Assembly: GCA_015492305.1 (NCBI GenBank)
Contig: WGFJ01000140.1
Location: 287 to 64,286 of the forward strand
From: Deltaproteobacteria bacterium
GTDB lineage: Bacteria; Desulfobacterota; GWC2-55-46; S146-80
Length of the DNA stretch: 64,000 nucleotides
Direction of reading: 5' to 3'
Shown: piece by piece, positions 22,966 to 36,979 of the stretch
Layout: each line of letters opens with the position of its first letter
Numbering within the stretch: position 1 is the stretch's first letter
The notes under the pieces: generated by a model
Seen by the model: the letters and a program-made list of their open reading frames with translations, nothing else
What the model was told of the DNA's origin: nothing
Databases searched by the model: none
Position numbers and translations under genes: made by a program

Positions 22966-23414
22966 CTCCTGACCTCCCTGAGGACAACCTCTGCTGCCTT
23001 CGGAATGGAGGCCTCCACCTCAGGGGTAAGGCCTATCCCCTGACATACCCTGCCAGGTTCTATCCCCACGATCCTCCCCTCAGGCCTCCTCCCTTTCATC
23101 AGGGTAAAGAGGGAGAAGACCTCCCTCAGGTCCACCTCGTGGAGGGAAAGCTTCTGGGCCGTCCTTGATGGGACCTCACTTATGTCGAAGGTGTAGATGG
23201 AGCCAGGCCTTCCACCGCCCCTGAAGGCATCCACCACCACAATACCATCCGCACCTTCAAGGTAAGGGAAGAGCTTGAGGCCACCTGTTCCTCCATCGAT
23301 GGCCTCAACACCTTCTGGCAGGCCCCCCTTTTCCAGGAGGTACTCCACCACCCTGACACCCACAGCCTCATCACCCATGAGGAGATTGCCCACCCCTATC
23401 ACCCTTACCCTCAT
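22947..23414 (-). CDS. hyaD: hydrogenase maturation endopeptidase (HyaD/HybD family)
   Basis: Start moved to the internal ATG (MRVRVIGVGNLLMGDEAVGVRVVE…), which matches the protease N-terminus consensus and abuts the cytochrome b stop (overlap at 23414). The His-rich ORF extension upstream is judged non-coding. Confidence 0.8.
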   Translation of the reverse strand: MRVRVIGVGNLLMGDEAVGVRVVEYLLEKGGLPEGVEAIDGGTGGLKLFPYLEGADGIVVVDAFRGGGRPGSIYTFDISEVPSRTAQKLSLHEVDLREVFSLFTLMKGRRPEGRIVGIEPGRVCQGIGLTPEVEASIPKAAEVVLREVRRCMNLQ

Positions 23415-24061
23415 TACTGCGATCCCCTGACCTTCTTCAGCTTGTACCCTGTGAAGATGGATGTGAAGGTCCTGTCCCTGTCGGTAAGGTCCTTGAGTAT
23501 CCCCATGTATATGTGGACAGGGATGGTGATGATAAAGATCCACATCACCGCAAAGTGGATGAGTCTTGTTACAGGCATACCTCCCAGAAGCCTGTTCACC
23601 CATCCGAAGGCGGCCTGAGAATCAAAGAGGCCAAAAACACTGCCGCTGTAGAGGGCAAAGCCTGTGAAGATCTGGACGATTATGAGGAGTCCCCACACAA
23701 AGTAGGTGAGGGCCTGAAGGGGGTTGAACCTCTCGTAGTCCTTGTGGGTATCCTTGAGGAAGAGATAATAACCCAGGATATCGGGTATATCCCTTATGAG
23801 GCTCCACCTTGGCAGCAGGGCACCGATATCGTTGAAGTATATGTAGGCTATGAGGCTCAGGATGAGGATGTACATGGAGAGGAAGTGGAGGAACCTCATC
23901 CAGCTCATCAGGTAACCACCCTCACTCCCTGGGATGAAGGGTGCATAGATGTAGTACCCGGTGAAGATGAGGACGAAGATGGCGATGGCCCTCACCCAGT
24001 GGTTTATCCTGTATGCAAGGTTCCACTCATAGACAAGCTCGTATCTCTCCTTAGCCATCAC
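23414..24061 (-). CDS. hyaC: Ni/Fe-hydrogenase b-type cytochrome subunit
   Basis: Four-TM cytochrome b (…NHWVRAIAIFVLIFTGYYIY…) placed after the large subunit. Confidence 0.85.
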   Translation of the reverse strand: MMAKERYELVYEWNLAYRINHWVRAIAIFVLIFTGYYIYAPFIPGSEGGYLMSWMRFLHFLSMYILILSLIAYIYFNDIGALLPRWSLIRDIPDILGYYLFLKDTHKDYERFNPLQALTYFVWGLLIIVQIFTGFALYSGSVFGLFDSQAAFGWVNRLLGGMPVTRLIHFAVMWIFIITIPVHIYMGILKDLTDRDRTFTSIFTGYKLKKVRGSQ

Positions 24062-24068
24062 CCACCTC

Positions 24069-25661
24069 CTACGAGACCCTGAACCTGTAGACCTCGTTTG
24101 TTTCAGGGTCTATTATGTGGACGGTACAGGCGATACAGGGATCAAAGGAGTGAACAACCCTGAGGACCTCAAGGGGCCTCTTGGGGTCCACCACAGGTGT
24201 TCCAATGAGGGCCTCCTCAATGGGTCCCCTCACCCCGTTCCCATCCCTGGGGGAGACATTCCACGCCGTGGGGGTGATCACCTGATACCTTTCGACCCTG
24301 CCATTCTTCAGGGTGTACCAGTGGCCAAGGGCACCCCTCGGTGCCTCCCACAGACCCACCCCTTCACCTGAATCAGGTGGTTCGTGGGGGGTAAACATCT
24401 CCTTCCTTCCGGCCTTGAGATTCTCGATGAGTTCCATGGTCCACTCCACCATGGAATCGGCTATGAGCTTTGCCTCAAGGGCCCTTGCAGCTGCCCTTCC
24501 AAGGGTGGACATGAGGACATCGTATCTTCCGGAAAGGCCAAGTCTGTCAAGGGTATTATCTATGAGGGTCCTTGCCTTCTCCCTCCCGGACACATAGGCA
24601 ACGAGCATCCTCGCCAGGGCCCCTACCTCCATGGGCCTGTCTCCAAGCCTCGGTGCCTTCGCCCAGCTGTATTTGGCCTCGGTGTCGTAACCTGTAAAAT
24701 CGGGCTCTGTCACACCTTTGCTTGGGTGGAGGGCCGGCCCGTCCTTGTACCAGCTATGGGTCACATGTTCCCTCACATCCTCCTGGTTTACCTCATTGCG
24801 CTTGAGTTCCCAGTTGTATATGGCACCCATGGGGAGGGTCCTCTTTGTGGGATCGAAGCTCTTGTCCTCAAAGACTCCCCAGGCAAGGAAGTTTCCAACA
24901 CCCTTTCCGATGGTGGCATACTCCAGGTAGTAAGGCGCTATGGCTATTACATCCTCCACAAAGACCTCATCTATCCACTTCTGTATCTTCTTGAGCCTGA
25001 AGAGGAAGTTCTGGAGATCCTCAACACCAGGGGTGCATGTCACCCCTCCAGGTGGTGTCCCCTGGATCATGGGCATCTTCCCGCCGAAGAAGGCAGAAAG
25101 GTGAGAGGCCTCAGCCTGCATCTCAAGGGCCTCAAGGTAATGGGCCACAACAAGGAGGTTCAGATCAGGTGGGAGCTTGTATGCAGGATGGCCCCAGTAG
25201 GCGTTTGCAAAGGGACCGAGTTGTCCGCTCTCCACAAAGGCCTTGAGCCTTGCCTGGACATCCTTCAGGTACTTTTCGCGGGGCAGGGCATTTAGAGCAC
25301 TCACAACATCCACATAGTCAAGCCCGTTCAGGTGGTAGAACCAGAGGATATGGGAATGGAGGAACTGGGAACCTTCCACAAGGTTCCTTATGATCCTTCC
25401 ATTGTCAGGGGGCCTTATGCCGTAGGAATCCTCAATGCACATGGCTGATGTATGGGCATGGGAGGTGGGGCAGACCCCGCAGATCCGCTGGGTGAGGATC
25501 CACGCATCCCGCGGATCCCTTCCCTCAAGGATGATCTCAAACCCCCTGAAGAGGGTTCCAGAGGTCCATGCATCCTTCACCTTGCCATCTTCCACCTCAA
25601 CCTCTATGCCGAGATGGCCCTCTATCCTGGGGATGGGATCTATGACTACCCTCTTTGCCAT
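24069..25661 (-). CDS. hyaB: [NiFe] hydrogenase large subunit, group 1 (membrane-bound uptake type)
   Basis: N-terminal RIEGH, the L1 motif RICGVCPTSH, and C-terminal DPCIACTVH followed by a cleavable tail. Confidence 0.9.
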   Translation of the reverse strand: MAKRVVIDPIPRIEGHLGIEVEVEDGKVKDAWTSGTLFRGFEIILEGRDPRDAWILTQRICGVCPTSHAHTSAMCIEDSYGIRPPDNGRIIRNLVEGSQFLHSHILWFYHLNGLDYVDVVSALNALPREKYLKDVQARLKAFVESGQLGPFANAYWGHPAYKLPPDLNLLVVAHYLEALEMQAEASHLSAFFGGKMPMIQGTPPGGVTCTPGVEDLQNFLFRLKKIQKWIDEVFVEDVIAIAPYYLEYATIGKGVGNFLAWGVFEDKSFDPTKRTLPMGAIYNWELKRNEVNQEDVREHVTHSWYKDGPALHPSKGVTEPDFTGYDTEAKYSWAKAPRLGDRPMEVGALARMLVAYVSGREKARTLIDNTLDRLGLSGRYDVLMSTLGRAAARALEAKLIADSMVEWTMELIENLKAGRKEMFTPHEPPDSGEGVGLWEAPRGALGHWYTLKNGRVERYQVITPTAWNVSPRDGNGVRGPIEEALIGTPVVDPKRPLEVLRVVHSFDPCIACTVHIIDPETNEVYRFRVS

Positions 25662-26725
25662 TACTCCTCACCCCCTTCCTTCTTGCCCTTTGTCCTGCCC
25701 TTCAGGGCTGAAGCCACAAAGTGGATACCTATGCCAGCAGCCGTTGCAACACCAAGGGTGGCACCTATCTTGTCTGCCGTATTCTCCACACCCTTGAAGA
25801 TGGGGATGGCAACACCTGGCAGTGCAGCCCTGAAGGGGCTGAAGGCATCAGGCCATCCAGGCTCGGTACAGCCTGTGCACCCGTAGCCTGTCTGAACACA
25901 CCAGCTTATCTTGTCGTTCCACCTCACAAGGGGACAGTTTGAAAAGGTATTCGGTCCCTTGCAGCCCATCTTGTAAAGGCATTTCCTCTCCCAGGCCTCC
26001 TCTGAACCGAACTCCTCCACAAAGACACCCTGATCGAAGTGGGCCCTCCTCGGACAGTTGTCGTGTATCCTTGTACCGTAGATCATCTTTGGCCTTCCAT
26101 ACCTGTCCAGTTCAGGAAGCCTTCCGAAGAGGAGGTTGTGGACGATGGTGGCAATCACCCATTCAGGGTTGACAGGACATCCCGGAAGATTCACCACCTG
26201 CCTCCCGAGGTACTCCCCGACCCCCTTGATACCGGCAGGGTTCGGCCTTGCCCCTGGCACCCCTCCATAGGTGGCACATGCACCGATGGCTATTATGGCC
26301 TTCGCCTTTTCAGAGGCCTCCTTCAGGATATCCATCATATCCCTTCTCCCTATCATCCCGTATCCACGCTTCGTGGGGACCCCTCCCTCTACGATGAGGA
26401 AGTAACCCCCTTCTTCTATGGATCTCTTCAGGATCTCTTCTGACTGGGTGCCTGCTGCAGCCATGATGGTCTCATGGTAGTCGATGCTCAGGATGTCAAG
26501 GACGAGTTCGGCAGCAGATGGATAGGTGGCTTTGATCACCGATTCGGTGCATCCTGTATCGGATGCGAAGTGGAGCCACACAACGGAAGGTCTTCTGGAG
26601 GCCTTCTCTATGGCCGATGCAATCTTCGGGATGTAGAGGTCGGAAAGGCCGAGCATGGAGGCAAGGAGCCCGCAGAACCTGAGGAACTCCCTTCGGTCAA
26701 GCTCTTTCAAAAGATAGTGCTTCAT
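25661..26725 (-). CDS. hyaA: [NiFe] hydrogenase small subunit, group 1, Tat-exported
   Basis: Twin-arginine signal (RREFLRF), Fe-S cluster cysteines, and a C-terminal hydrophobic anchor. Start set at MKHYLL, which has an AAAGGAGGGGG ribosome-binding site. Confidence 0.9.
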   Translation of the reverse strand: MKHYLLKELDRREFLRFCGLLASMLGLSDLYIPKIASAIEKASRRPSVVWLHFASDTGCTESVIKATYPSAAELVLDILSIDYHETIMAAAGTQSEEILKRSIEEGGYFLIVEGGVPTKRGYGMIGRRDMMDILKEASEKAKAIIAIGACATYGGVPGARPNPAGIKGVGEYLGRQVVNLPGCPVNPEWVIATIVHNLLFGRLPELDRYGRPKMIYGTRIHDNCPRRAHFDQGVFVEEFGSEEAWERKCLYKMGCKGPNTFSNCPLVRWNDKISWCVQTGYGCTGCTEPGWPDAFSPFRAALPGVAIPIFKGVENTADKIGATLGVATAAGIGIHFVASALKGRTKGKKEGGEE

Positions 26726-26807
26726 ACACCCCCCTCCTTTCAGCAAACGGTCCTAATACACCTGCCTCAACAGTCTATCACCTCCTTCCTCAAAGGACTT
26801 TTTTAAA

Positions 26808-26835: not shown

Positions 26836-28116
26836 TTAATCCCTTCTTATTTCAACCTTCAGGAGATGGGTGGAACAGGATATGCAGGGATCGTAGTTCC
26901 TTATGGTCTGTTCACTCCTGAAGGTGAGTTCCTCCTCTGCCATGTGGAGGTTCATCTCCACAAACTTCCTCAGGTCCTCCTCCATGACCCCCTGGTTCTG
27001 GGAGGTGGGTGGAACTATCTTTGCATCCCTTATTATGCCCCTACCGTCTATGGTGTACCTGTGGTAGAGTATCCCCCTTGGAGCCTCGGTGCATCCGTAT
27101 CCAGTGCCTTCCCTGACCTCAAATTCAATCGATGCCTCCCCTGGCTCTTCATACCCCTCAACGATACCCACTGCCTCATCGAAGGCATGGAGTATCTCAA
27201 TGGTCCTCACCACTATGGAAAGGAAGGGATTCCTGCAGGGAGGGACAAGACCCACCTCCCTTGCAATCTCCCTTGCAATGGGCCTCAACCTCTCGAAGTT
27301 CAGGTTGAACCTTGCAAGGGGTCCAACAAGGTAATGGCCCCTTTCCTTCAATCTGGAGTGGAGGGCCGTTGAATGGGGGACCTGCTCCTCCACGAAGTGG
27401 TCGTCATAATCCCTCACATCTATGTCAAGGCCCTTGTTCGAGACAATCCTCCCCTCATTCATGGGGTATTCATCGGGATGGGAGAGGGCCACAAACTCGT
27501 AGTCCCTCTCAAGATCAGGGAAGGGCAGGGTCGAAGCCCATCTCACCATCTCCACCGCCAGATCCCTTCCCCTTTTGAGGTCCTCAAGTATCCCCCTGAG
27601 CTCCTCCTTCCCCGGCACCCTGTAGAATCCCCCCACCCTGAGGTTCACAGGGTGGATCTCCCTCCCACCCACAAGGGCCACAAGGGCATTGCCTATGCGC
27701 TTTAGATTCAGCCCTTTCTCCACCACATCCCTGTGGTCCCCTGCCATCTCCATGGCGCTCTGGTAACCAAGGAAGTCAGGGGCATGGAGGAGGAAGACAT
27801 GGAGGGCATGGCTCTCGATCCACTCCCCGCAGTAGATAAGCCTCCTCAGGGTCCTGAGACCGCCGCCCACCTTCACACCCAGAAGGTCCTCCATGGCATG
27901 GGATGAGCTCATCTGGTAGGCCACAGGGCATATGCCACATATCCTTGCCGTTATGTCAGGGGCCTCGTCGAAACGTCTGCCCCTCAGGAAGGCCTCAAAG
28001 AACCTTGGCGGTTCAAAGATGTTCAACCTCACCTCCTGCACCTTCCCGCCCTTCACCCTCACATAGATCCCTCCCTCACCTTCCACACGGGCAAGGTTAC
28101 CCACCTTTATCCTCAT
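26836..28116 (-). CDS. [NiFe] hydrogenase large subunit, group 3b (sulfhydrogenase alpha-like)
   Basis: RICGICP…H motif and C-terminal DPCISCSTH. Size of 426 aa matches the short cytoplasmic group-3 type. Confidence 0.85.
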
Positions 28117-28892
28117 GCCCCCTCCCCTTCAAAGGACCTTGCAAAGGGTGCAAGGGCCCCTTCTATGTTGAAGGTCCTGAGTCTCCTTACAAGTTCCTCC
28201 CTCTCCATGCCGTATCTTTCGATCCACCATCTGCCAAGGGATTCCATGTTCACCGTCTCCGAAGGGCCGTAACATCCGTAGCACCCCCTCCTGTAGGAAG
28301 GACAGATGGCACCGCAACCGCCATGGGTCACGGGTCCCATGCAGGGCACCCCCTCTGATACCATGACGCAGACATTGTCCTTCATCTTGCACTCAAGGCA
28401 CAGGCTGTGGGAGGGGATGCTGGGGGTGCGACCGTTAAGGAGGGAGATCAGGACATATAGGAGCTGGTGCTTGTTTATGGGGCAACCCCTCAACTCAAGG
28501 TCAACCTTCACATGATGGGATACAGGGGTTGAATCCTTAAGGGTATCGATGTACTCGGGCCTTGCATACACAAGGGATGTAAACTCCTCAACATCCCTCA
28601 GGTTCCTCAGGGCCTGTATCCCCCCTGCCGTTGCACAGGCCCCTATGGCTATGAGGTACCTTGAGGCCCTCCTTATCCTTTTTATCCTTTCCACATCATG
28701 GGGTGTTGTGATGGAACCCTCTACAAGGGAGATGTGGTATGGCCCCTTCTCAACCCTTCGTGAGGCCTCAAGGAAGTAGGCCACCTCCACCGCCTCTGAA
28801 AGGGGCAGGAGTTCCTCCTCGCAGTCAAGGAGGCTGAGCTGGCACCCGTCACAGGAGGCAAACTTCCACACAGCAAGCCTTATCTTCCTCAT
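28113..28892 (-). CDS. [NiFe] hydrogenase small subunit, group 3b (delta-like)
   Basis: N-terminal CDGCQ, proximal and distal Fe-S cysteines, 259 aa. Overlaps its neighbours by 4 bp. Confidence 0.8.
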
Positions 28893-29713
28893 ACCTCCTT
28901 CCTCCAGATGAGTTCCTTCACCGTGTCATACCTGAAGACAGGACCATCCTTACACACAAAGTAGGGTCCAAACTGACAGTGGCCGCAAAGCCCTATGGCG
29001 CACTTCATATTCCTCTCCATGGAGAGGAATATCTTCTCCTCCTTCAGTCCTGCCTCCATAAGGGCCCTCACGGTAAAGCGCATCATCACCTCGGGTCCAC
29101 ATACCATGGCTGTTGTGTGGTATGGATCGAAGCGGGCCCTCTCAATAAGGGCCGTTACCACACCAACATTGCCCTTCCATGTGGAGGATGCGGAATCCAC
29201 GGTCACATCCACATACATGTCGAACCTCCCCCTCCACCTGTGGAGTTCCCTCTTGTAGAGGAGGTCATCCGGTGTCCTTGCACCGTAGAGGAGGAGGAAT
29301 CTGCCAAAGTCCTTCCTCCTTGAGAGGACATCGTAGACCACAGGCCTTAAAGGGGCAAGCCCAACCCCCCCTGCCACAAGGAGGATATCGTCACCCCTGG
29401 CCTCATCCACAGGCCATGGGTTACCAAAGGGCCCCCTCACGCCTATGGGGTCCCCCTTTTTCAGTCTCCCTATAAGGCCCGTGACAGAACCCACCATCCT
29501 CACCGTATGGACCACCCTGTCCATCTTTCCAGGGTCTCCGCTTATGGAGATGGGCACCTCCCCTGCACCAGGGAGGTAGAGCATGTTGAACTGACCCGGC
29601 CTGAACCGGAAGGGCCTCCCGTAGCCTTCCAGGGTAAGGGTCACAACATCCCCTGTCTCCCTCCTTATCTGTCCTACAGAGAGGATGGCTGGAATGAGGG
29701 GGTGGCCCATCAC
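28889..29713 (-). CDS. sulfhydrogenase gamma-like FAD/NAD(P)-binding subunit with [2Fe-2S] site
   Basis: PyrK-like oxidoreductase fold with C-terminal [10 protein letters not shown]. Confidence 0.75.
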
Positions 29714-30180
29714 CTTCCCTTTGGAGATCCGTAGACATCAAGGAGCTGCAGCCTTGTTGCCTGGAGCCTCTTATACATGATGTAGCTGAAGCGTTTCAGG
29801 AACTCATAGCCGAGTTCGTGGTCCTCCTCGCACTTCTTCCTGAGACAGTTGCCGTCAAGGGCAAGGGCCCTTGTGAGCTCCAGTGCCCTTGCATCAAAGA
29901 TCCAGTGGTATGGAGGTATGAGCCAGGAAAAGCCAAGGATGTCACCGTCATGGAGGGTCTGGATGGTTATGGGTGGCCTTCCCGGCACCCCTATCTCGAT
30001 GGCCACCCTCCCATACCTGATGAGGTAGAAGTAGTCTGCCTCCTCCCCTTCACGGAATATGTACTCCCCTTCGTTGAACCTCACATTCCTTGCACAGGAA
30101 ACGATCCTCTTCAGGATATCCTCCCTAAGCCCCTTGGAGAAGGGATGTTCCCTTAAAAGGCGCTCAAGATCCTCCATCAT
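29710..30180 (-). CDS. cyclic nucleotide-binding domain protein
   Basis: cNMP-binding beta-barrel motif (FREGEEADYFYLIRYGRVAIEI). ATG start at 30180 overlaps the upstream stop as ATGA, and the stop overlaps the gamma-subunit start. Confidence 0.6.
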   Translation of the reverse strand: MMEDLERLLREHPFSKGLREDILKRIVSCARNVRFNEGEYIFREGEEADYFYLIRYGRVAIEIGVPGRPPITIQTLHDGDILGFSWLIPPYHWIFDARALELTRALALDGNCLRKKCEEDHELGYEFLKRFSYIMYKRLQATRLQLLDVYGSPKGR

Positions 30181-31271
30181 CCACCTCCCTTTCTCAATTC
30201 CTCCACCACCTCGGTAATGTCTATCCCCACAGGACACCATGTTATGCACCTGCCACACCCCACACACCCAGGGGTGCCGAACTGATCTATCCAGGTGGCA
30301 AGCTTATGGGTGATCCAGTGGCGGTACCTTGAAGCTATGGAAGAGCGGATACTCCCTCCATGGAGGTATGTGAAGTCAAGGGTGAAGCAGGAATCCCATC
30401 TCTGCCACCTCTCTGCCGATCCATCGAGGGCCATCCTGTCCTCAAGGGTGGTACAGAAGCAGGTGGGGCACACAAAGGTGCAGTTCCCGCAGGCAAGGCA
30501 CCTCTTTTCCACATCCCTCCAGTATGGATGATCATGGCTCCTGTAGAGGAGTTCCTTGAGTCCATCCCTCTCAAGGGCCCTTCCCATCCTCCCCTTTGCC
30601 CCTTCGATAAGCCCCTCAGCCTCCCTTATCTGCGCTGGAGAGGCCTCCATCGATGGTATCCTCTCCAGAAGGCCCTTTCCCCTCTGTGAGCCTGCCTGTA
30701 TGAGGAAGTAGTGCTCCTTGCCAGAGACCTCTGTGAGGATGAGGTCGGCACCATCTCCTACCTCTGGGCCTGTCCCCATGGACAGACAGAAACATGTACC
30801 CCCTGGATGGGTGCAGTTCACCGCTATTATGAGGCTTTTCTCCCTCCTCCTGAGGTAGTGGGGGTCCCTGTACTCACCTTCTAAAAGGACCCTGTCCCGG
30901 ATGGAGATCCCTGCTACATCGCAGGGTCTTACAAGGAAGGCAAACCCCGGATCATCCCCATCCTCCTCTTCAACCCCTCTTCCATCGGATGAGACCCTGA
31001 AGAGGAGCCTTTCAGGGGGATTGAGAAAGTATTTCGGTGAACCCGGACCAACCGCGTAACCGAAAAAGAGATCCCCTTCCTGTCTCAGACGATACCTACC
31101 TGCCCCCTGCTCATCCCTGTATCCCTCGGGCAGGTCCCCTATGGACCCTATCTCCCCGTAGTGTATTGCACCATCCCTTACAAGGGGACCCACGACCGTG
31201 TAACCCTCTTCCCTGAGGGCCCTTAAGAGCCCTTCAAGGCCTTCCTTTCCTATCACCCTTACGGTCATCAT
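30177..31271 (-). CDS. sulfhydrogenase beta-like 4Fe-4S subunit
   Basis: Ferredoxin-type cysteine clusters (CLACGNCTFVCPTCFC; GCVGCGRCITWCP). 364 aa. Confidence 0.75.
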   Translation of the reverse strand: MMTVRVIGKEGLEGLLRALREEGYTVVGPLVRDGAIHYGEIGSIGDLPEGYRDEQGAGRYRLRQEGDLFFGYAVGPGSPKYFLNPPERLLFRVSSDGRGVEEEDGDDPGFAFLVRPCDVAGISIRDRVLLEGEYRDPHYLRRREKSLIIAVNCTHPGGTCFCLSMGTGPEVGDGADLILTEVSGKEHYFLIQAGSQRGKGLLERIPSMEASPAQIREAEGLIEGAKGRMGRALERDGLKELLYRSHDHPYWRDVEKRCLACGNCTFVCPTCFCTTLEDRMALDGSAERWQRWDSCFTLDFTYLHGGSIRSSIASRYRHWITHKLATWIDQFGTPGCVGCGRCITWCPVGIDITEVVEELRKGGG

Positions 31272-31290: not shown

Positions 31291-31677
31291 TCAAGGGGTC
31301 CTTCCCTTTGAGGAGACCCTGATTATGGTCTTCAGGTTCCCCCTGGGGTTGAAATCCCCTATGACCTCTATGAATCTCGGCTTCAGGACCTTCTGAAGGT
31401 CGTCGTATATCCTGTTTGTAGCCGCCTCATGGGAGATGTACCGGTCCCTGAAGGAGTTGAGGTAGAGCTTCAGGGACTTGAGCTCGACTATGTACCTGTC
31501 GGGGATGTAGTTGATCCTTATGGTGGCATAGTCTGGATAGCCAGACCTCGGACAGAGGCAGCTGAACTCTGGAAAGGAGAGCTCTATGAGATAGTCCCTG
31601 TCAGGACAGGGGTTCTCCCATACCTCAAGCCTCACCTCCTTTATGGCCTTCTCTCCATACCTGAGTCCGTCTGCCAT
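31291..31677 (-). CDS. queF: NADPH-dependent 7-cyano-7-deazaguanine reductase (preQ1 synthase)
   Basis: QueF motifs [19 protein letters not shown] and [13 protein letters not shown]. Start set at the internal MADGLRY, giving a type-I size of 129 aa. Confidence 0.8.
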
Positions 31678-31746
31678 ACCCAAATTATAGTGTAAAAGAC
31701 ACCCTAAAGGAAGTCCTTTCCAATAGTCCTTGAAAGGGGGGATGAT

Positions 31747-32289
31747 TTGAGGTATAACCCTCTCTCTAAAGCCATGATCACTAACAAAGGGAACATGCTC
31801 TTTCCAACCATCTTCATGGCCCTTGCGGCTGCTGTACTCCTGTACGCTGGTTACAGGAAAGGGGTCCATGTGAAGGGGCTTATGTGGGGGCTCACAATGA
31901 CCCTCAAGATCCTTCCCCTCGTCTTCCTCGCACTCCTTGTGGCAGGGATGGTTCAGCTCCTCATACCCAGGGAGTCCATCTCGGCATGGATCGGATCAGG
32001 GGCAGGGCTGAGGGGTATCATACTTGGTTCCATAGCCGGAAGCCTCTCCCCTGGAGGCCCCTATGTGAGCCTTCCCATAGCCCTTGCACTCCTCCACTCA
32101 GGTGCAAGTATAGGGACGGTGGTGTCCTTCCTTACAGCCTGGTCCCTTATGGCTGTCTCAAGGCTTCCCATGGAGATCGGTTTCCTCGGGTGGAAGGTCA
32201 CGGTGATACGGGTGATGAGCACATTCTTCTTCCCACCTGTTGCAGGCCTTATCGCCCAGACCCTCTTCGGTAGCAGGACAGGAGGATAG
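31747..32289 (+). CDS. small polytopic membrane protein, putative permease
   Basis: Four to five predicted TM segments. First gene of a plus-strand block and adjacent to the nrdD-like start. Confidence 0.35.
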
Positions 32290-32291
32290 AG

Positions 32292-34247
32292 ATGACCGAC
32301 CCCTCCGATCTCCCAAGGGAGAGGATAACGGACCTCACCCTCTTTGTAAGGACATCATCGGAGGAGATGAGTCCCTGGAACAGGGAGAGGATAGTGGATG
32401 CCCTCATGAGGGAAACCCCACTTGACTACGAGTCAGCCGTTGCCATAAGCAGGGAGATAGAAGACTTCATCTTCCGGTCCGGATTGAGGCACATAACCAC
32501 ACCCCTCATAAGGGAACTCGTGGACACCAAGCTGATCGAAAGGGGCTTTGAGGGTATCTACAGGAGGCACAGGAGGCTTGGAGTACCCGTCTACGATGTG
32601 GAGAACCTCCTCTTCCATTCAGGGAAGGAGAATGCCAACATACCCCACTCACCAGAGGCATCCAGCCACATACTTTCAGAACTGATAAAGAAGGAGTATG
32701 CCCTTGAAGCGGTCTTCTCCCCTGAGGTGAGGGATGCCCACATCAGGGGAGACATACACATCCATGGCCTTGGTTTCATAGACAGGCCTTACTCCACCTA
32801 TCAAAACCTCGAGGGCCTCAAGGAAGGAGGCCTTGACCTTTCCTTTCCCCCTGTTAAGGCAGGACCTGCCAGACATGCAGATGCACTCCTGTCCCAGATG
32901 ATAAGGCTCTCAAGCCTCCTTCAGGCCCACTATGCAGCCTCCATAGGGTGGTACGGTGTCAACCTGTCCTTTGCCCCCTATCTCAGGGGGATGGACTACA
33001 GAGGAATAAGGCAGATCGCCCAGAGGATGGTCTTTGAATTCTCCCAGCTTGGGGCAGGCAGGGGTGGACAGGCCATATTCTCAACGATCCACATAGACCT
33101 CAAGCCTTCCCGGGGTGCTACAGCCATAGGACCGGGTGGCAGTCGATGCGGCACCTACGGGGATTACAGGAAAGAGGCAAGGCTCTTTGCCATGGCCCTT
33201 ATGGAGGTCTACAGGGAGGGGGATGCCTCTGGCAAGCCCCTCTTCTTCCCCCAGCCCTGGTTCCACATATGGGAAGAAACCCTGGAGGATAGAGAACTCC
33301 TGTCGTTGCTCCTGGCTGTGTGTCAGGAAAAGGGTGTGCCCCACATCCTCTTTGAAAGAGGGGATGGAAGGACCCTTCTGGAAGGTCCCTTCCCCTCCAT
33401 CTCCATCCTCCAGAATGTGAGCATCAACCTCCCGAGGATCGGATACCGGATCAGAGGAGGGCAGGATCCGGATAGGGAGCTTGAAAGGGTGGTGGAGATT
33501 GCCATAAGGGCCCATGTCGAGAAGAGGGAGTTCCTCAGAAGGCTTGCAGAAAAGGAGAAGGGACCACTGAGCTTTGTGGTGGAAAAGGGCTTCTTCTCCC
33601 CGGACAGGGCAGTGGCCTTTGTGGGTATAATAGGCCTTCCCGAGTACCTTCATATCATCGGAAAGGAGGGGGATGGAGGGGAGGCGGCAGGGGTCCTCAA
33701 AAGGCTTGAGAGGCTGGTAACCCGGATGGGCAAGAGGCACATGCTTCAGGCCTGCCTCACCCAGACCCCTGGGGAGAGCACGGCCCACCGCTTTGCAAAG
33801 CTCGACCTCAAGTACCATGCCCCTCTGAGTGGAAGGAACATAAGGGGTGACATCGCAAAGGGAGAGATCTATTACAACACATCCCTCCTGCCCATCTCTT
33901 CCGAGGTGGAGCCCTTTGAGAGGGCAAGGTACGAGGGGGCCTTGCAGCCCCACATAAGGGGGGAGACCTTTACCAACATCTATCTCGAAGGAAGGCCCTT
34001 CAGGGAGGACTTCATAGAGAGGCTCTTCAGGAAAACAGGGGTAAGGTCCATCTCCCTGTCTCCGGACTTTACCTTGTGCATGGACTGTGGTATCTCCATA
34101 GAGGGGATCCGGGAAAGGTGCGGGTCCTGCGGTTCCAGCAGGGTCGACTACATCTCAAGGGTTACAACCTACTACTCCCTTCTCTCCAACTGGAACAGGG
34201 GGAAGGTGGGAGAATGGAAGGAGAGGTTCAGATGGAAGGGCTGGTAA
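32292..34247 (+). CDS. anaerobic ribonucleoside-triphosphate reductase (NrdD)-like protein with atypical radical-site motif
   Basis: Length of 651 aa, an ATP-cone-like N-terminus, and a C-terminal Zn ribbon (CMDCG…CGSCG). This is followed by SRVTTYYS where NrdD carries the RVCGY glycyl-radical motif. Confidence 0.5.
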   Translation: MTDPSDLPRERITDLTLFVRTSSEEMSPWNRERIVDALMRETPLDYESAVAISREIEDFIFRSGLRHITTPLIRELVDTKLIERGFEGIYRRHRRLGVPVYDVENLLFHSGKENANIPHSPEASSHILSELIKKEYALEAVFSPEVRDAHIRGDIHIHGLGFIDRPYSTYQNLEGLKEGGLDLSFPPVKAGPARHADALLSQMIRLSSLLQAHYAASIGWYGVNLSFAPYLRGMDYRGIRQIAQRMVFEFSQLGAGRGGQAIFSTIHIDLKPSRGATAIGPGGSRCGTYGDYRKEARLFAMALMEVYREGDASGKPLFFPQPWFHIWEETLEDRELLSLLLAVCQEKGVPHILFERGDGRTLLEGPFPSISILQNVSINLPRIGYRIRGGQDPDRELERVVEIAIRAHVEKREFLRRLAEKEKGPLSFVVEKGFFSPDRAVAFVGIIGLPEYLHIIGKEGDGGEAAGVLKRLERLVTRMGKRHMLQACLTQTPGESTAHRFAKLDLKYHAPLSGRNIRGDIAKGEIYYNTSLLPISSEVEPFERARYEGALQPHIRGETFTNIYLEGRPFREDFIERLFRKTGVRSISLSPDFTLCMDCGISIEGIRERCGSCGSSRVDYISRVTTYYSLLSNWNRGKVGEWKERFRWKGW

Positions 34248-34822
34248 CAAAGGTTTATAAAGAGAGCATAGCCGTCAAGGAGGCCTTTTTCAAGGAGGAG
34301 ACCCACAGGATCATCGAGGTGGCAAGCCTCATAGCCGAGACCTTCACCAGAGGAAACAAACTACTCCTCATTGGAAATGGCGGAAGCGCTGCAGATGCCC
34401 AGCACATAGCCGCTGAGTTTGTAAACCGTTTCAGGATCGAGAGACCTCCACTGCCTGCCCTTGCCCTCACAACGGACACATCCATCATAACGAGTATAGG
34501 GAACGATTACGAGTTCAGACAGATCTTCGCAAAGCAGGTGAAGGCCCTTGGAAAGGAGGGAGACATCCTCATGGCCATAAGCACAAGCGGCTCCTCACCC
34601 AACATACTGGAAGCCATAAAGGCGGCAAGGAAGATGGATATAAAAGTGATCGGCCTTACAGGCAGGGATGGAGGTGAGATGGCCGGGATGGTGGATATAC
34701 CCCTTGTGGTGAGGAGTGATAACACACCAAGGATACAGGAAGTCCACATCACCGTTGGACACATCCTCTGTGAACTCGTGGATTACATCCTCTTCAAAAA
34801 GCCCCTTGAGGAGGTGGAATGA
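34232..34822 (+). CDS. gmhA: SIS-domain phosphoheptose isomerase
   Basis: GmhA-like motifs (LLIGNGGSAADAQHIAAEF…ISTSGSSPN). Start set at the ATG that has a GGAAGGAGAGG ribosome-binding site; 34214 is an alternative. Confidence 0.8.
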   Translation: MEGLVTKVYKESIAVKEAFFKEETHRIIEVASLIAETFTRGNKLLLIGNGGSAADAQHIAAEFVNRFRIERPPLPALALTTDTSIITSIGNDYEFRQIFAKQVKALGKEGDILMAISTSGSSPNILEAIKAARKMDIKVIGLTGRDGGEMAGMVDIPLVVRSDNTPRIQEVHITVGHILCELVDYILFKKPLEEVE

Positions 34823-35757
34823 AGAGGTGGGAACCCCTCTCCTTTGAAGGGGTGAAGAGGAGATCCATAGGGGAGAGGGCAAGCAAGGTAAGGGAAGGGG
34901 ACCTCGCCACACCCCTGAAGAAGGGAGCCTCCTTAAGGGAGTTCCTGGAAGGGCTCCCTGACATCCTCGGAGCAAGGGACCTCATAGCCCTTGCAAAGGA
35001 GATAGGGGAATCGAGGAAGAAGGGAAGGCCAGTCATCCTCGGGATGGGTGCCCATGTCATAAAGACCGGTCTTTCCCCGGTGATCATAGACCTCATGGAG
35101 GAAGACATCATCACAGGTGTTGCCATGAATGGTGCCGGGATCGTCCATGACTTCGAGCTTGCCCTTGCCGGAAAGACATCGGAGGATGTGGACAGGGAGA
35201 TAGACGAGGGGATGTTCGGCATGACCGAAGAAACGGGAAAGATCCTGAACAGCGCCATAAAGAGAGGGGTTGAGAGGGGCTACGGCATAGGGGAGGCCGT
35301 GGGCAGGGAGATACTGGAGTCCTGCCCGAACAGGGAGATCAGCATCCTTGCGGCAGGGGTGAGGCTGAACAAGCCTGTAACCGTCCATGTGGCCCTTGGC
35401 ACCGACATCATCCACATCCACCCTGAGGTGGACGGGAAGGCCATAGGGGAGGGAGGGATGAGGGACTTCCGCATATTCTGTGGCCTTGTTAAAGACCTCG
35501 AAGGAGGGGCCTACATCAATGCGGGATCTGCTGTGATACTGCCAGAGGTCTTCCTGAAGGCCCTTACCCTTGTGAGGAACCTCGGCTACAGGGTGGAAAG
35601 GTTTGTCACGGCAAACATGGACTTCATCCAGCACTATAGACCCCTTACCAATGTGGTAAGGAGGCCCACAAAGAAGGGAGGAAAGGGTTTTTCACTAACA
35701 GGCCACCATGAGATAATGCTCCCCCTCCTTGCAGCCGCCGTAAAGGAGTATATGTGA
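34819..35757 (+). CDS. deoxyhypusine synthase family protein (DHS-like NAD-binding)
   Basis: The segment LGMGAHVIKTGLSPVIIDLMEEDIITGVAMNGAGIVHDFELAL aligns by eye with the DHS core (LGLAGAMVPAG…VTTGANLTHD). Confidence 0.55.
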   Translation: MKRWEPLSFEGVKRRSIGERASKVREGDLATPLKKGASLREFLEGLPDILGARDLIALAKEIGESRKKGRPVILGMGAHVIKTGLSPVIIDLMEEDIITGVAMNGAGIVHDFELALAGKTSEDVDREIDEGMFGMTEETGKILNSAIKRGVERGYGIGEAVGREILESCPNREISILAAGVRLNKPVTVHVALGTDIIHIHPEVDGKAIGEGGMRDFRIFCGLVKDLEGGAYINAGSAVILPEVFLKALTLVRNLGYRVERFVTANMDFIQHYRPLTNVVRRPTKKGGKGFSLTGHHEIMLPLLAAAVKEYM

Positions 35758-35761
35758 GGCC

Positions 35762-36979
35762 CTACGCCTCTATTGTCCTTCCCTTCCTCGGGATCACTAC
35801 TATCTTCGATGGATCAACGGTGTAGCGGAGACGATCCTTCTTCGGATCAAAGCCTATCTCCTCACCCTCCTCTATTACATTGTGCTTGTCCACAATCACC
35901 CTCTTCAACCTGCACCCCTTCTTGAGAACAACACCCTCCATGATGATACACTCCTCAACAGAAGCACCTTCCTCAACAACCACACCGCTCCTGAGGATCG
36001 AATCCCTGATAAGGCCCCCATGGATCACCGTTCCCTCTGCAATGGAGGAGTTCACCACCTCTCCACCGAAGATCCTCACAGAGGGACCACCTTCAACGCC
36101 GGAATGGATGGGCCAGTCCTGATTGTCCAGTTCGAACCTTGGCTCTTTGCCGAGCATGTCCATGTGGGCGTTGAAGTAGGAGGATATGGTCCCCACATCC
36201 CTCCAGTAGGCCCTCTCCTCGTAGGGTCTTATGCCTGGAACCACGTTGGTCGCAAAGTCATAGGCATAGACCCTACCGGTCCTCACAAGGTCCGGTATCA
36301 CATGGGCACCGAAGTCGTGTTGATCCTTCTTCTGGGCCTTTATAAGGGCCTCTACAAGGACATCCCTGTTGAAGATGTAATTCCCCATGGAGACATAGGC
36401 CATGGATGGGTTGCCGGGCATGGGAGTGGGACTTTCAGGCTTTTCCTGAAACCCAACAATCCTGTTCTCCTCATCTGCCACGATCACACCAAAGGCAGAT
36501 GCCTCTTCAAGGGGCACAGGCCTTGCGGCCACGGTAACAGAAGCCCCCCTGGAGAGGTGGAAATCCACCATCTGCCTCACATCCATCCTGTATATGTGAT
36601 CTGCGCCAAAGATGATGACGATCTCAGGGTTGTGGTCGTTTATGAGGTTTATGTTCTGAAAGACCGCATCCGCTGTCCCCTGAAACCACTCAGGTCCCAC
36701 CCTCATCTGGGGAGGGACTATGGCTATAAAGTGATCCCTCACAAGGGGGGAAAAGACCCAGTTCTGCCTCACGTGCTCGATAAGGGACTGGGATTTGTAC
36801 TGGACAAGGAGGTATATGGAGTAGATGTGGGAGTTTATGAGGTTGCTGAGCACGAAATCCACGATCCTGAACCTCCCACCGAAGGGGACAGCAGGCTTCG
36901 AGCGGTAGGCTGTAAGGGGATAGAGCCTCTCCCCCTTTCCCCCGGCAAGGACAAAGGCAAGTATCTTTGGATGGGCCAA
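35762..36979 (-). CDS. glgC: glucose-1-phosphate adenylyltransferase
   Basis: N-terminal LAGGKGERLYPLT…KPAVPFGG, with a left-handed beta-helix C-terminus. TTG start. Confidence 0.9.
   Translation of the reverse strand: MAHPKILAFVLAGGKGERLYPLTAYRSKPAVPFGGRFRIVDFVLSNLINSHIYSIYLLVQYKSQSLIEHVRQNWVFSPLVRDHFIAIVPPQMRVGPEWFQGTADAVFQNINLINDHNPEIVIIFGADHIYRMDVRQMVDFHLSRGASVTVAARPVPLEEASAFGVIVADEENRIVGFQEKPESPTPMPGNPSMAYVSMGNYIFNRDVLVEALIKAQKKDQHDFGAHVIPDLVRTGRVYAYDFATNVVPGIRPYEERAYWRDVGTISSYFNAHMDMLGKEPRFELDNQDWPIHSGVEGGPSVRIFGGEVVNSSIAEGTVIHGGLIRDSILRSGVVVEEGASVEECIIMEGVVLKKGCRLKRVIVDKHNVIEEGEEIGFDPKKDRLRYTVDPSKIVVIPRKGRTIEA

Follow-up and report, generated by a model that had tools for sequence, protein, structure and literature searches.

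Why should a protein with a cyclic-nucleotide-binding (CNB) fold be encoded in the middle of a hydrogenase operon? The question is raised by a 64,000-nucleotide (nt) stretch of DNA from a Deltaproteobacteria bacterium (contig WGFJ01000140.1, positions 287 to 64,286; hereafter the window), in which an open reading frame (ORF) at 29710-30180 on the minus strand lies between the beta and gamma subunit genes of a [NiFe]-hydrogenase. An earlier note on this DNA had described the ORF as encoding a CNB-domain protein with no DNA-binding domain, which Pfam and the ORF list confirm, and had suggested that it might be an allosteric regulatory subunit that senses cyclic nucleotides (cNMP). Few hydrogenases are as widespread in soils, sediments and hot springs as those of group 3b, which are commonly depicted with four subunits, modelled on the Pyrococcus prototype. 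We think it probable, although by no means certain, that the product of the ORF is an accessory subunit without catalytic function, the fifth of the bacterial group 3b (NAD(P)-linked, Hyh/sulfhydrogenase-type) [NiFe]-hydrogenase. Comparative genomics supports the idea of a physical subunit through synteny, co-divergence and natural fusions of beta to the CNB protein, whereas the cNMP-sensing part of the earlier suggestion is not supported. The genes and elements to which the argument refers are listed below.

30177..31271, minus strand: beta subunit, 364 amino acids (aa), AsrA/HydB/ShyB-like, with a Fer4_22 4Fe-4S dicluster domain (Pfam, NCBIfam).

30177..30189, minus strand: beta/CNB junction, with the Shine-Dalgarno sequence GGGAGGTGG at 30181-30189 followed by ATGATG.

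29710..30180, minus strand: gene of the putative CNB-fold accessory protein (ORF list, Pfam PF00027, AlphaFold2 (AF2) model, Foldseek).

29902..29934, minus strand: degenerate phosphate-binding cassette of the CNB protein, residues 83-93, GFSWLIPPYHW (translation, family conservation, hidden Markov model alignment).

29731..29820, minus strand: long C-terminal helix of the CNB protein, residues 121-150 (DSSP on the AF2 model, conservation).

29708..29713, minus strand: CNB/gamma junction, where the CNB stop codon TGA (29710-29712) overlaps the gamma start codon GTG (29711-29713).

28889..29713, minus strand: gamma subunit, 274 aa, AsrB/HydG-like, FAD/NAD(P)-binding and 2Fe-2S (NAD_binding_1 and DHODB_Fe-S_bind; Pfam, NCBIfam).

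28113..28892, minus strand: delta subunit, 259 aa, hydrogenase small subunit, Oxidored_q6 (Pfam, NCBIfam).

26836..28116, minus strand: alpha subunit, 426 aa, [NiFe] large subunit, NiFeSe_Hases (Pfam, NCBIfam, PDB search).

The top NCBIfam matches of the operon's subunits were ShyA/B/C/D and HydA/B/G/D, with beta matching ShyB/HydB/AsrA. On these sequence matches the label group 3b-type is justified, because the nearest solved relatives of alpha are the sulfhydrogenase I alpha subunits of Pyrococcus and Thermococcus (E=3e-69). Scores in bits were far under the archaeal equivalog cut-offs (NCBIfam NF0408xx) for all four subunits (alpha 288 against 700, beta 160 against 690, gamma 177 against 650 for HydG, and delta 180 against 460), and the operon therefore belongs to the bacterial clade rather than to the archaeal enzymes. 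Clusters of identical organisation have been placed in group 3b in published work (PMC11879354, PMC13332983, PMC12319191).

The overlaps that had been described on both sides of the CNB gene are present: ATGA links the beta TGA to the ATG at 30180, and GTGA links the CNB TGA to the gamma GTG at 29713, with an alternative ATG at 29708-29710. However, a 4-nt overlap is identical at all four internal junctions of the operon, and we found no promoter-like site or plausible terminator within it. Translational coupling of the CNB gene is thus real, yet it is not particular to this gene, because every internal junction has the same overlap. The length of 156 aa that had been assigned to the protein holds when counted from the ATG at 30180. 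The ATGATG at this position also overlaps the beta TGA stop (30177-30179), and the protein is probably 155 aa long, starting at the second ATG (30177) with a TGATG overlap of 1 nt with beta, since this start matches the family N-terminus 'ME(T/D)LE' and has a better Shine-Dalgarno spacing.

Is the insert a peculiarity of this genome? Canonical group 3b operons had been taken to be without it. In a synteny survey that used the delta subunit as bait in a metagenome scan, a bait chosen independently of the CNB gene, we recovered loci of the window's own clade (delta 61-68% identical). Among the 54 loci that had gamma plus sufficient upstream DNA, 52 carried the CNB gene immediately upstream of gamma (45 complete copies and seven cut by a contig end), and beta directly abutted gamma, with no CNB gene, only in L015 and L051. 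The CNB gene is therefore the normal fifth gene of the bacterial group 3b operons sampled, and operons without the insert are limited to the archaeal prototypes and a few bacterial lineages. To our knowledge, archaeal sulfhydrogenase operons consist of four genes and have no CNB gene. Two other loci, L054 and L069 (2384-8041), had no beta-gamma module upstream of delta; there, a distant (~30% identical) delta-alpha-like pair precedes the group 3b-like delta-alpha pair, which represents a different architecture. The beta/gamma-like genes of Ilyobacter (L011) were set aside as evidence on group 3b, since they belong to an Hdr/Mvh-like cluster without CNB.

The order beta-CNB-gamma-delta-alpha was also found in five of six genome loci, from Ignavibacteriota, Bacteroidota, Nitrospinaceae, Calditrichaeota and an uncultured bacterium, and on plasmids of Burkholderia and Rhodococcus. 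The protein family (~153 aa) comprises 7160 proteins at E<=1e-5 among 90%-identity clusters, and 761 clusters at 50% identity with E<=1e-30; the source names of its members include Anaerolineae, Blastocatellia/Acidobacteriota, Armatimonadetes and Ignavibacteria, and the gene spans roughly ten bacterial phyla or classes. All three marks of the family are seen in the window copy: the position between beta and gamma, the cassette G-[WF]-S-W-x-x-P-P-Y-x-W and the helix end A-T-R-L-Q-L-L-D-x-Y. The gene has been mentioned in passing in group 3b clusters of Frankia, Rhodococcus equi and a methanotroph (PMC11879354, PMC13332983, PMC12319191), under the names 'small transcriptional regulator' in Frankia (PMC11879354) and 'HoxI' in the methanotroph (PMC12319191). 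The window gene is thus a typical member of a widespread family that had been noticed earlier and is uncharacterised.

A physical association with beta is suggested by natural gene fusions. According to profile searches, P0142 (542 aa) contains a complete beta with both ferredoxin Cys motifs and a complete CNB module at residues 390-540, the CNB module being joined in frame to the C-terminus of beta by a linker of ~12 residues. There are 13 such fusion clusters (P0142, P0274-P0285), 49-76% identical to P0142 and with lengths of 539-546 aa (one of 720 aa), and all of them match both Pfam Fer4_22 and cNMP_binding. The P0142/P0271 fusion was present in three independent assemblies, with 51 differences in 1629 nt and no indel between L094 and L096. 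Judging from the retention of both domains in all clusters over this range of identity, the fusion is old and maintained. In three of the four fusion operons inspected (L096, L097 and L098) a free second CNB gene comes after the fusion gene, with gamma, delta, alpha, HycI and HypF behind it. Such operons would supply two CNB modules per beta, which would be consistent with a pairing as in CRP by way of the conserved C-helix and recalls the HoxI2 of the Cupriavidus enzyme discussed below.

Other arrangements of the module were also seen. In L099 (6001-8437) a 515-aa Pyr_redox_2 flavoprotein precedes the fusion and gamma directly follows it; the next 5 kb downstream contain neither delta nor alpha hydrogenase genes. 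The beta-gamma-CNB module may in this case serve an enzyme other than hydrogenase, and the gene order suggests that the CNB module is tied to the beta-gamma diaphorase pair and not to the [NiFe] dimer. In L100 (6001-8163; P0285, the cluster of 720 aa), beta and CNB are followed by ~185 further residues and then by delta and fragmented alpha-like ORFs; either gamma contributes a part to a triple fusion here, or the arrangement is an artefact of assembly errors. Tandem CNB-CNB proteins of 303-348 aa (P0122, P0124 and P0125; from L095 and a Joint Genome Institute (JGI) contig) have a GWSW..PP..W cassette in each half. P0122 adjoins an RND efflux system (OEP, CusB/CzcB-like, ACR_tran) and not a hydrogenase, and represents a covalent pseudo-dimer in another context. 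We rejected these tandem proteins as evidence on hydrogenase operons and consider them paralogues that are weakly relevant to dimerisation.

The CNB gene also diverges in the manner of the subunit genes. We compared 38 complete operons, in most of which the junctions were overlapping or shorter than 50 nt. Mean pairwise identity was 0.54 for CNB, compared with 0.57 for beta, 0.59 for gamma, 0.71 for delta and 0.67 for alpha, and the CNB distance matrix correlated with that of gamma at r=0.73 and with those of the other subunits at 0.55-0.61.

These data bear on the possibility that the protein is an assembly or maturation chaperone of beta-gamma, assisting Fe-S or flavin insertion or subunit docking, and that it is absent from the mature complex. 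Operon-embedded small proteins are frequently assembly factors. In addition, the CNB gene is dispensable in some lineages, and HoxI, a CNB-fold subunit of another hydrogenase, easily dissociates from its enzyme (PMC3189943). A permanent covalent fusion to beta that is kept down to 49% identity nevertheless speaks against a transient role, and the dedicated maturation genes (HycI, Hyp) sit elsewhere in these operons. We know of no chaperone role of the CNB fold, and we regard this explanation as unlikely.

What kind of CNB protein is it? The Pfam domain cNMP_binding (PF00027) covers residues 33-119 (E=5.9e-14; 52.3 bits, cut-off 27.5), and the Pfam scan of the protein returned no helix-turn-helix (HTH) or other DNA-binding domain and no other meaningful domain. 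The AF2 model (predicted local distance difference test, pLDDT, 89.9; predicted template modelling score, pTM, 0.84) consists of a beta-roll and a 30-residue C-helix with nothing beyond the helix, which terminates in a conserved hydrophobic A-T-R-L-Q-L-L-D-V-Y and would correspond to the CRP/FNR dimerisation helix. Foldseek returned 638 PDB matches at E<=0.001, with CNB domains in every match listed. Together these results establish the protein as a CRP/FNR-type effector domain (beta-roll and long C-helix) without a DNA-binding domain.

The likeness to CRP/FNR factors (CRP, GlxR, Mycobacterium tuberculosis CRP, DNR and FNR) extends over the effector domain and the long C-helix. Structural matches to MtbCRP, GlxR and DNR covered 141-150 aligned columns, and JGI pipelines label family members 'CRP/FNR family'. 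In contrast to these factors, the window protein lacks the winged helix, the cAMP contacts and the FNR-type cysteine motif. An identity as a CRP/FNR transcription factor was ruled out, as the protein has no HTH and ends with the C-helix, and an identity as an FNR-type [4Fe-4S] sensor was ruled out because the Cys pattern is a different one and is not universal.

Homologues with an intact cassette are also encoded alone in Actinomycetota. In a metagenome-assembled genome (L005), one of 58% identity adjoins wax-ester synthase/DGAT (WS/DGAT) and AdhE; on a Streptomyces plasmid (L012), one of 41% identity adjoins a universal stress protein (USP), carbonic anhydrase and glucose-6-phosphate dehydrogenase (G6PD). 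Both neighbourhoods resemble hypoxia/dormancy regulons. One could therefore suppose that the protein is not a subunit and controls hydrogenase expression in trans as a CRP/FNR paralogue devoid of a DNA-binding domain, for example as a heterodimer with a full-length CRP/FNR protein. The hypoxia/dormancy-type genes next to the stand-alone copies (USP, WS/DGAT, AdhE, G6PD) would fit this, as would the Frankia annotation (PMC11879354), and the CRP-like C-helix of the model could mediate heterodimers. Several features speak against a regulator acting in trans: the gene lies within the structural operon with its codons overlapping two subunit genes, is fused to beta in 13 clusters, and matches the structural subunits in conservation and co-divergence. 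No conserved HTH partner gene was found near the CNB gene in the loci inspected. We consider control in trans quite unlikely.

A similarly low probability attaches to an FNR-like redox or metal sensor, in which H12, C29, C112, C117 and H121 would bind an Fe-S cluster or a metal, or form a redox-active disulfide, and in this way inform the enzyme of O2 or redox state. The five residues are 93-100% conserved in the 120 closest homologues and 76-96% conserved in 51 operon copies, and in the secondary structure of the model all of them fall in the alpha-helical subdomain. However, none of the three cysteines remains in L022 and L031 and a single one in L061, C29 and C112 are missing from the Rhodococcus in-operon copy and from the free copy of the fusion operons, and the pattern is unlike the Cys-x2-Cys-x5-Cys plus one central Cys of FNR. 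In the fusion clade (L094, L096-L099; P0142, P0271, P0274-P0284), the fused CNB modules have lost C112 and H121, and often C29 and H12, and a conserved C-K-T-C, which has been counted in favour of a sensor, has been gained in the linker in 12 of 13 clusters. This linker motif could be a compensating metal or redox site. As the hydrogenase-baited sample and the fusion clade showed the residues to be dispensable in several lineages, we have downgraded the putative FNR-like metal or Fe-S site to a lineage-specific feature.

The cassette is a different matter. The hallmark of a functional cAMP- or cGMP-binding CNB domain is a Gly-Glu, which contacts the ribose 2'-OH, together with an Arg-Ser/Thr, which contacts the cyclic phosphate. 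The family consensus in this region is G-W-S-W-L-I-P-P-Y-x-W, and in the window copy F84 stands in place of the canonical Glu and W93 in place of the canonical Arg. In a profile alignment G-W-S-W-L-I-P-P-Y-x-W-x-F-D-A-R-A aligned without gaps to G-E-L-A-I-L-Y-N-C-T-R-T-A-T-V-K-T of PKG I-beta CNB-A, with the PKG Glu opposite W/F84 and its Arg-Thr opposite W93 and a variable residue; alignments with PKG and PKA end or drop in score at the cassette. Among 51 relatives, which are full-length CNB copies from independently sampled loci, position 84 was W in 42, A in five, L in two, and F and I in one each, and was never Glu. Position 93 was W in 42, R in three, K in three, and A, C and Y in one each, and neither the Glu nor a Ser/Thr at the next position is present in the six R/K variants. 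The cassette alignment that the earlier note had put forward as the check on its cNMP-sensor proposal thus came out against that proposal. Sensing of cAMP or cGMP is very unlikely on this evidence. That the protein is a genuine cAMP/cGMP sensor gating the hydrogenase allosterically is highly improbable, for although the fold is bona fide and the domains of PKG, PKA and CRP match best in sequence and structure if the structure 3mdp is set aside, both hallmark phosphate contacts are gone and 3mdp, the closest solved relative, has the same degenerate cassette skeleton.

The cassette was kept in the beta-fused copies, in the divergent Rhodococcus in-operon copy and in the stand-alone Streptomyces copy, and the G-W-S-W-x-x-P-P-Y-x-W cassette and the ATR(L/M)QLLD helix end are the sole features common to free, fused, actinobacterial and stand-alone copies. 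Being the most constrained part of the protein, the cassette is functional, though not as a cyclic-phosphate site. The window copy is mildly atypical in having F84 (mostly W elsewhere) and I94 (mostly H, R, Q or K).

Would a CNB-fold subunit of a hydrogenase be unusual, as the earlier note had supposed? Apart from the published mentions of the gene itself, there is a precedent. HoxI is a CNB-fold subunit of the soluble NAD+-reducing [NiFe]-hydrogenase of Cupriavidus necator (Ralstonia eutropha) H16 (PMC3702609, PMC3189943). It binds the diaphorase module HoxFU as a homodimer (PMC3702609, PMC3189943), giving the group 3d enzyme HoxHYFUI2, and has been associated with NADPH-dependent activation (PMC3702609, PMC3189943, PMC12319191). 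Like the window protein, HoxI is small (167 aa), consists of a CNB domain with no DNA-binding domain, and has its gene among the structural genes in the operon of an NAD(P)-linked [NiFe]-hydrogenase of the cytoplasm. The cassettes of both are without the canonical Arg, but that of HoxI, GELGFIDQTPH (compared with GFSWLIPPYHW in the window), keeps the G-E-L Glu, and HoxI has neither the Trp cassette nor a cysteine. The two proteins are 22-23% identical (BLASTP pairwise E=7e-8; hhalign probability 83% over 102 columns), and a tblastn search at E<=1e-3 did not recover HoxI even though the collection contained pHG1. Their settings differ as well: hoxI follows hoxW at the operon end, whereas the window gene lies between diaphorase genes, and the partner of HoxI is the NuoEFG-like FMN diaphorase HoxFU, which is unrelated to the AsrAB-like FAD/Fe-S beta-gamma module of the window. 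Orthology with HoxI was rejected on the grounds of low identity, the differing cassette and the lack of tblastn retrieval. HoxI is best seen as the closest functional precedent, that is, an analogue that, from the sequence comparison, would have arisen by independent, parallel recruitment.

The closest solved structure among the matches listed was 3mdp (Gmet_1532 of Geobacter metallireducens), a structural genomics entry described as a 'putative cyclic nucleotide-binding protein' (Foldseek E=1e-11, template modelling score 0.90 on the target, root-mean-square deviation 1.7 A, 30% identity), followed by PKG, DNR, MtbCRP and GlxR. It resembles the window protein in consisting of a single CNB domain of comparable size, and in a cassette that has the skeleton G-x-S-x-L-I-x-P-Y-H-x with neither Glu nor Arg; unlike the window protein, it lacks the cassette Trp residues, the cysteines and the C-helix end. 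P0121 (840 aa) and P0152 (532 aa) contain 3-5 tandem 3mdp-like degenerate CNB modules with the cassette GWSAVMEPYVYTASAW, plus an uncharacterised C-terminal domain. A more distant comparison is offered by the cAMP-independent PKA-R of trypanosomes (6flo, 6hyi, 6hyq, 6h4g), likewise among the Foldseek matches, in which the cassette is altered and cAMP binding is lost, and whose entries are described as bound to inosine or guanosine. As these proteins bind nucleosides, a degenerate cassette does not preclude binding of some ligand. They are, in contrast to the window protein, eukaryotic tandem CNB proteins that regulate a kinase, they have no similarity in the cassette, and they are a conceptual analogue only. 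The archaeal sulfhydrogenases I/II (HydBGDA/ShyBCDA of Pyrococcus furiosus, and those of Thermococcus kodakarensis) have alpha, beta, gamma and delta subunits homologous to those of the window; none of the sulfhydrogenase entries 9nez, 9e1j, 9e15 and 5yxy was among the PDB matches to the CNB protein.

Several observations weigh against the interpretation of the protein as a subunit. The gene is missing from L015, L051, the Streptomyces operon L010 and, as annotated, Hyd3 of Mycobacterium smegmatis (PMC2799521), and close homologues are also encoded apart from any hydrogenase gene (L005, L012). Within Actinomycetota, the insert is present in Rhodococcus and Frankia (PMC11879354) and absent in Streptomyces sp. 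NBC_01450 (L010), and the M. smegmatis Hyd3/Hyh genes MSMEG_3931-3927 are numbered consecutively as beta-gamma-delta-alpha-protease, with no intervening gene as annotated (PMC2799521). As the gene is dispensable in some lineages, the protein would be accessory or regulatory and not essential for catalysis. Examination of beta and gamma in L015 and L051 revealed no compensating deletion or substitution. In L010 (5995-6888), beta is only 297 aa long and lacks the N-terminal ~85 residues found in all CNB-bearing operons; this was the only CNB-less operon with a shortened beta among those compared. A CNB homologue of 39% identity lies ~20 kb off on the same replicon. When the natural fusion was modelled with AF2 from 13 naturally paired rows, both halves folded (pTM 0.63), but the linker had a pLDDT <50 and there was no committed docking geometry. 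Neither the purification of a CNB-bearing group 3b enzyme nor the purification, structure or genetics of its CNB protein was found in the searchable literature. The fusion and the synteny indicate functional linkage and likely contact, and do not speak to stoichiometry or mechanism.

With these reservations, an accessory subunit remains our preferred interpretation, and the following picture can be proposed. The CNB protein would be made in step with the enzyme subunits, would dock on beta (the AsrA-like 4Fe-4S subunit) of the beta-gamma diaphorase module, and probably pairs through its C-helix. Pairing could result in two CNB modules per beta, or in a CNB homodimer that bridges two alpha-delta-gamma-beta protomers. 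The invariant aromatic cassette may be a docking surface, or it may be a pocket for a ligand other than a cNMP, such as a nicotinamide or adenine nucleotide, as proposed for HoxI. Rather than catalysing, the protein would then act on electron flow between NAD(P)(H) and the hydrogenase, by stabilising it or by tuning it allosterically. A more far-reaching version of this proposal, which we offer tentatively as a possibility, is that bacterial group 3b hydrogenases are five-subunit enzymes with a repurposed CNB fold recruited independently of HoxI, that binding of a non-cNMP metabolite (for example NAD(P)H, a nucleoside or a flavin) in the Trp-lined pocket controls electron flow or the direction in which H2 metabolism runs, and that the Cys-bearing lineages add a redox or metal site.

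The group 3b operon has a second hydrogenase as its neighbour. A respiratory-type [NiFe]-hydrogenase cluster (23414-26746, minus strand) begins 89 nt downstream of the group 3b alpha gene. No maturation protease gene was found between the two hydrogenases; in the related operons L008, L009 and L098 a protease follows alpha. The genes of this cluster and the ORF that precedes beta are as follows.

25661-26746, minus strand: small subunit, 361 aa, with an N-terminal 'RREFLRF' twin-arginine-like motif.

24069-25661, minus strand: large subunit, 530 aa.

23414-24061, minus strand: cytochrome b-like membrane subunit, 215 aa.

31291-31869, minus strand: QueF (nitrile reductase) ORF, 192 aa as listed, with the Pfam QueF domain at residues 112-188.

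The QueF ORF ends 19 nt upstream of the beta gene, and queF may be co-transcribed with the hydrogenase operon. Its real start is probably internal, to judge from the position of the QueF domain and from the 132 aa at which QueF was called in a relative (L093). In this relative, which is 85% identical (Logan run ERR14788038), the neighbourhood at 32292-36979 is kept; the conserved genes encode the class III ribonucleotide reductase NrdD, an SIS-domain protein, a 312-aa ORF, a GlgC-like nucleotidyltransferase and an ArsP-like permease, together with queF. An Rfam scan of the whole 64-kb window gave no family at gathering score (no tRNA, rRNA or riboswitch, including upstream of queF).

The window gene is not itself exceptional. 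On the present evidence, most bacterial versions of the group 3b hydrogenase encode a fifth, highly conserved protein physically tied to beta, and this bears on how H2 production or consumption is tuned to the redox or nucleotide state of the cell. Annotation as a CRP/FNR transcriptional regulator or as a cAMP-binding protein should be avoided in favour of hydrogenase accessory subunit, and the CNB gene should be co-expressed when bacterial group 3b enzymes are produced in other hosts or studied structurally. After HoxI, the family appears to be a second, apparently independent, case in which a hydrogenase has taken on a CNB fold as a subunit. If the more far-reaching proposal is true, there would be a general layer of allosteric control that has been overlooked because the CNB gene is absent from the archaeal enzymes and from M. 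smegmatis Hyh, the one bacterial model to have been studied. The modest interest at the level of the family lies in what the Trp cassette binds or touches.

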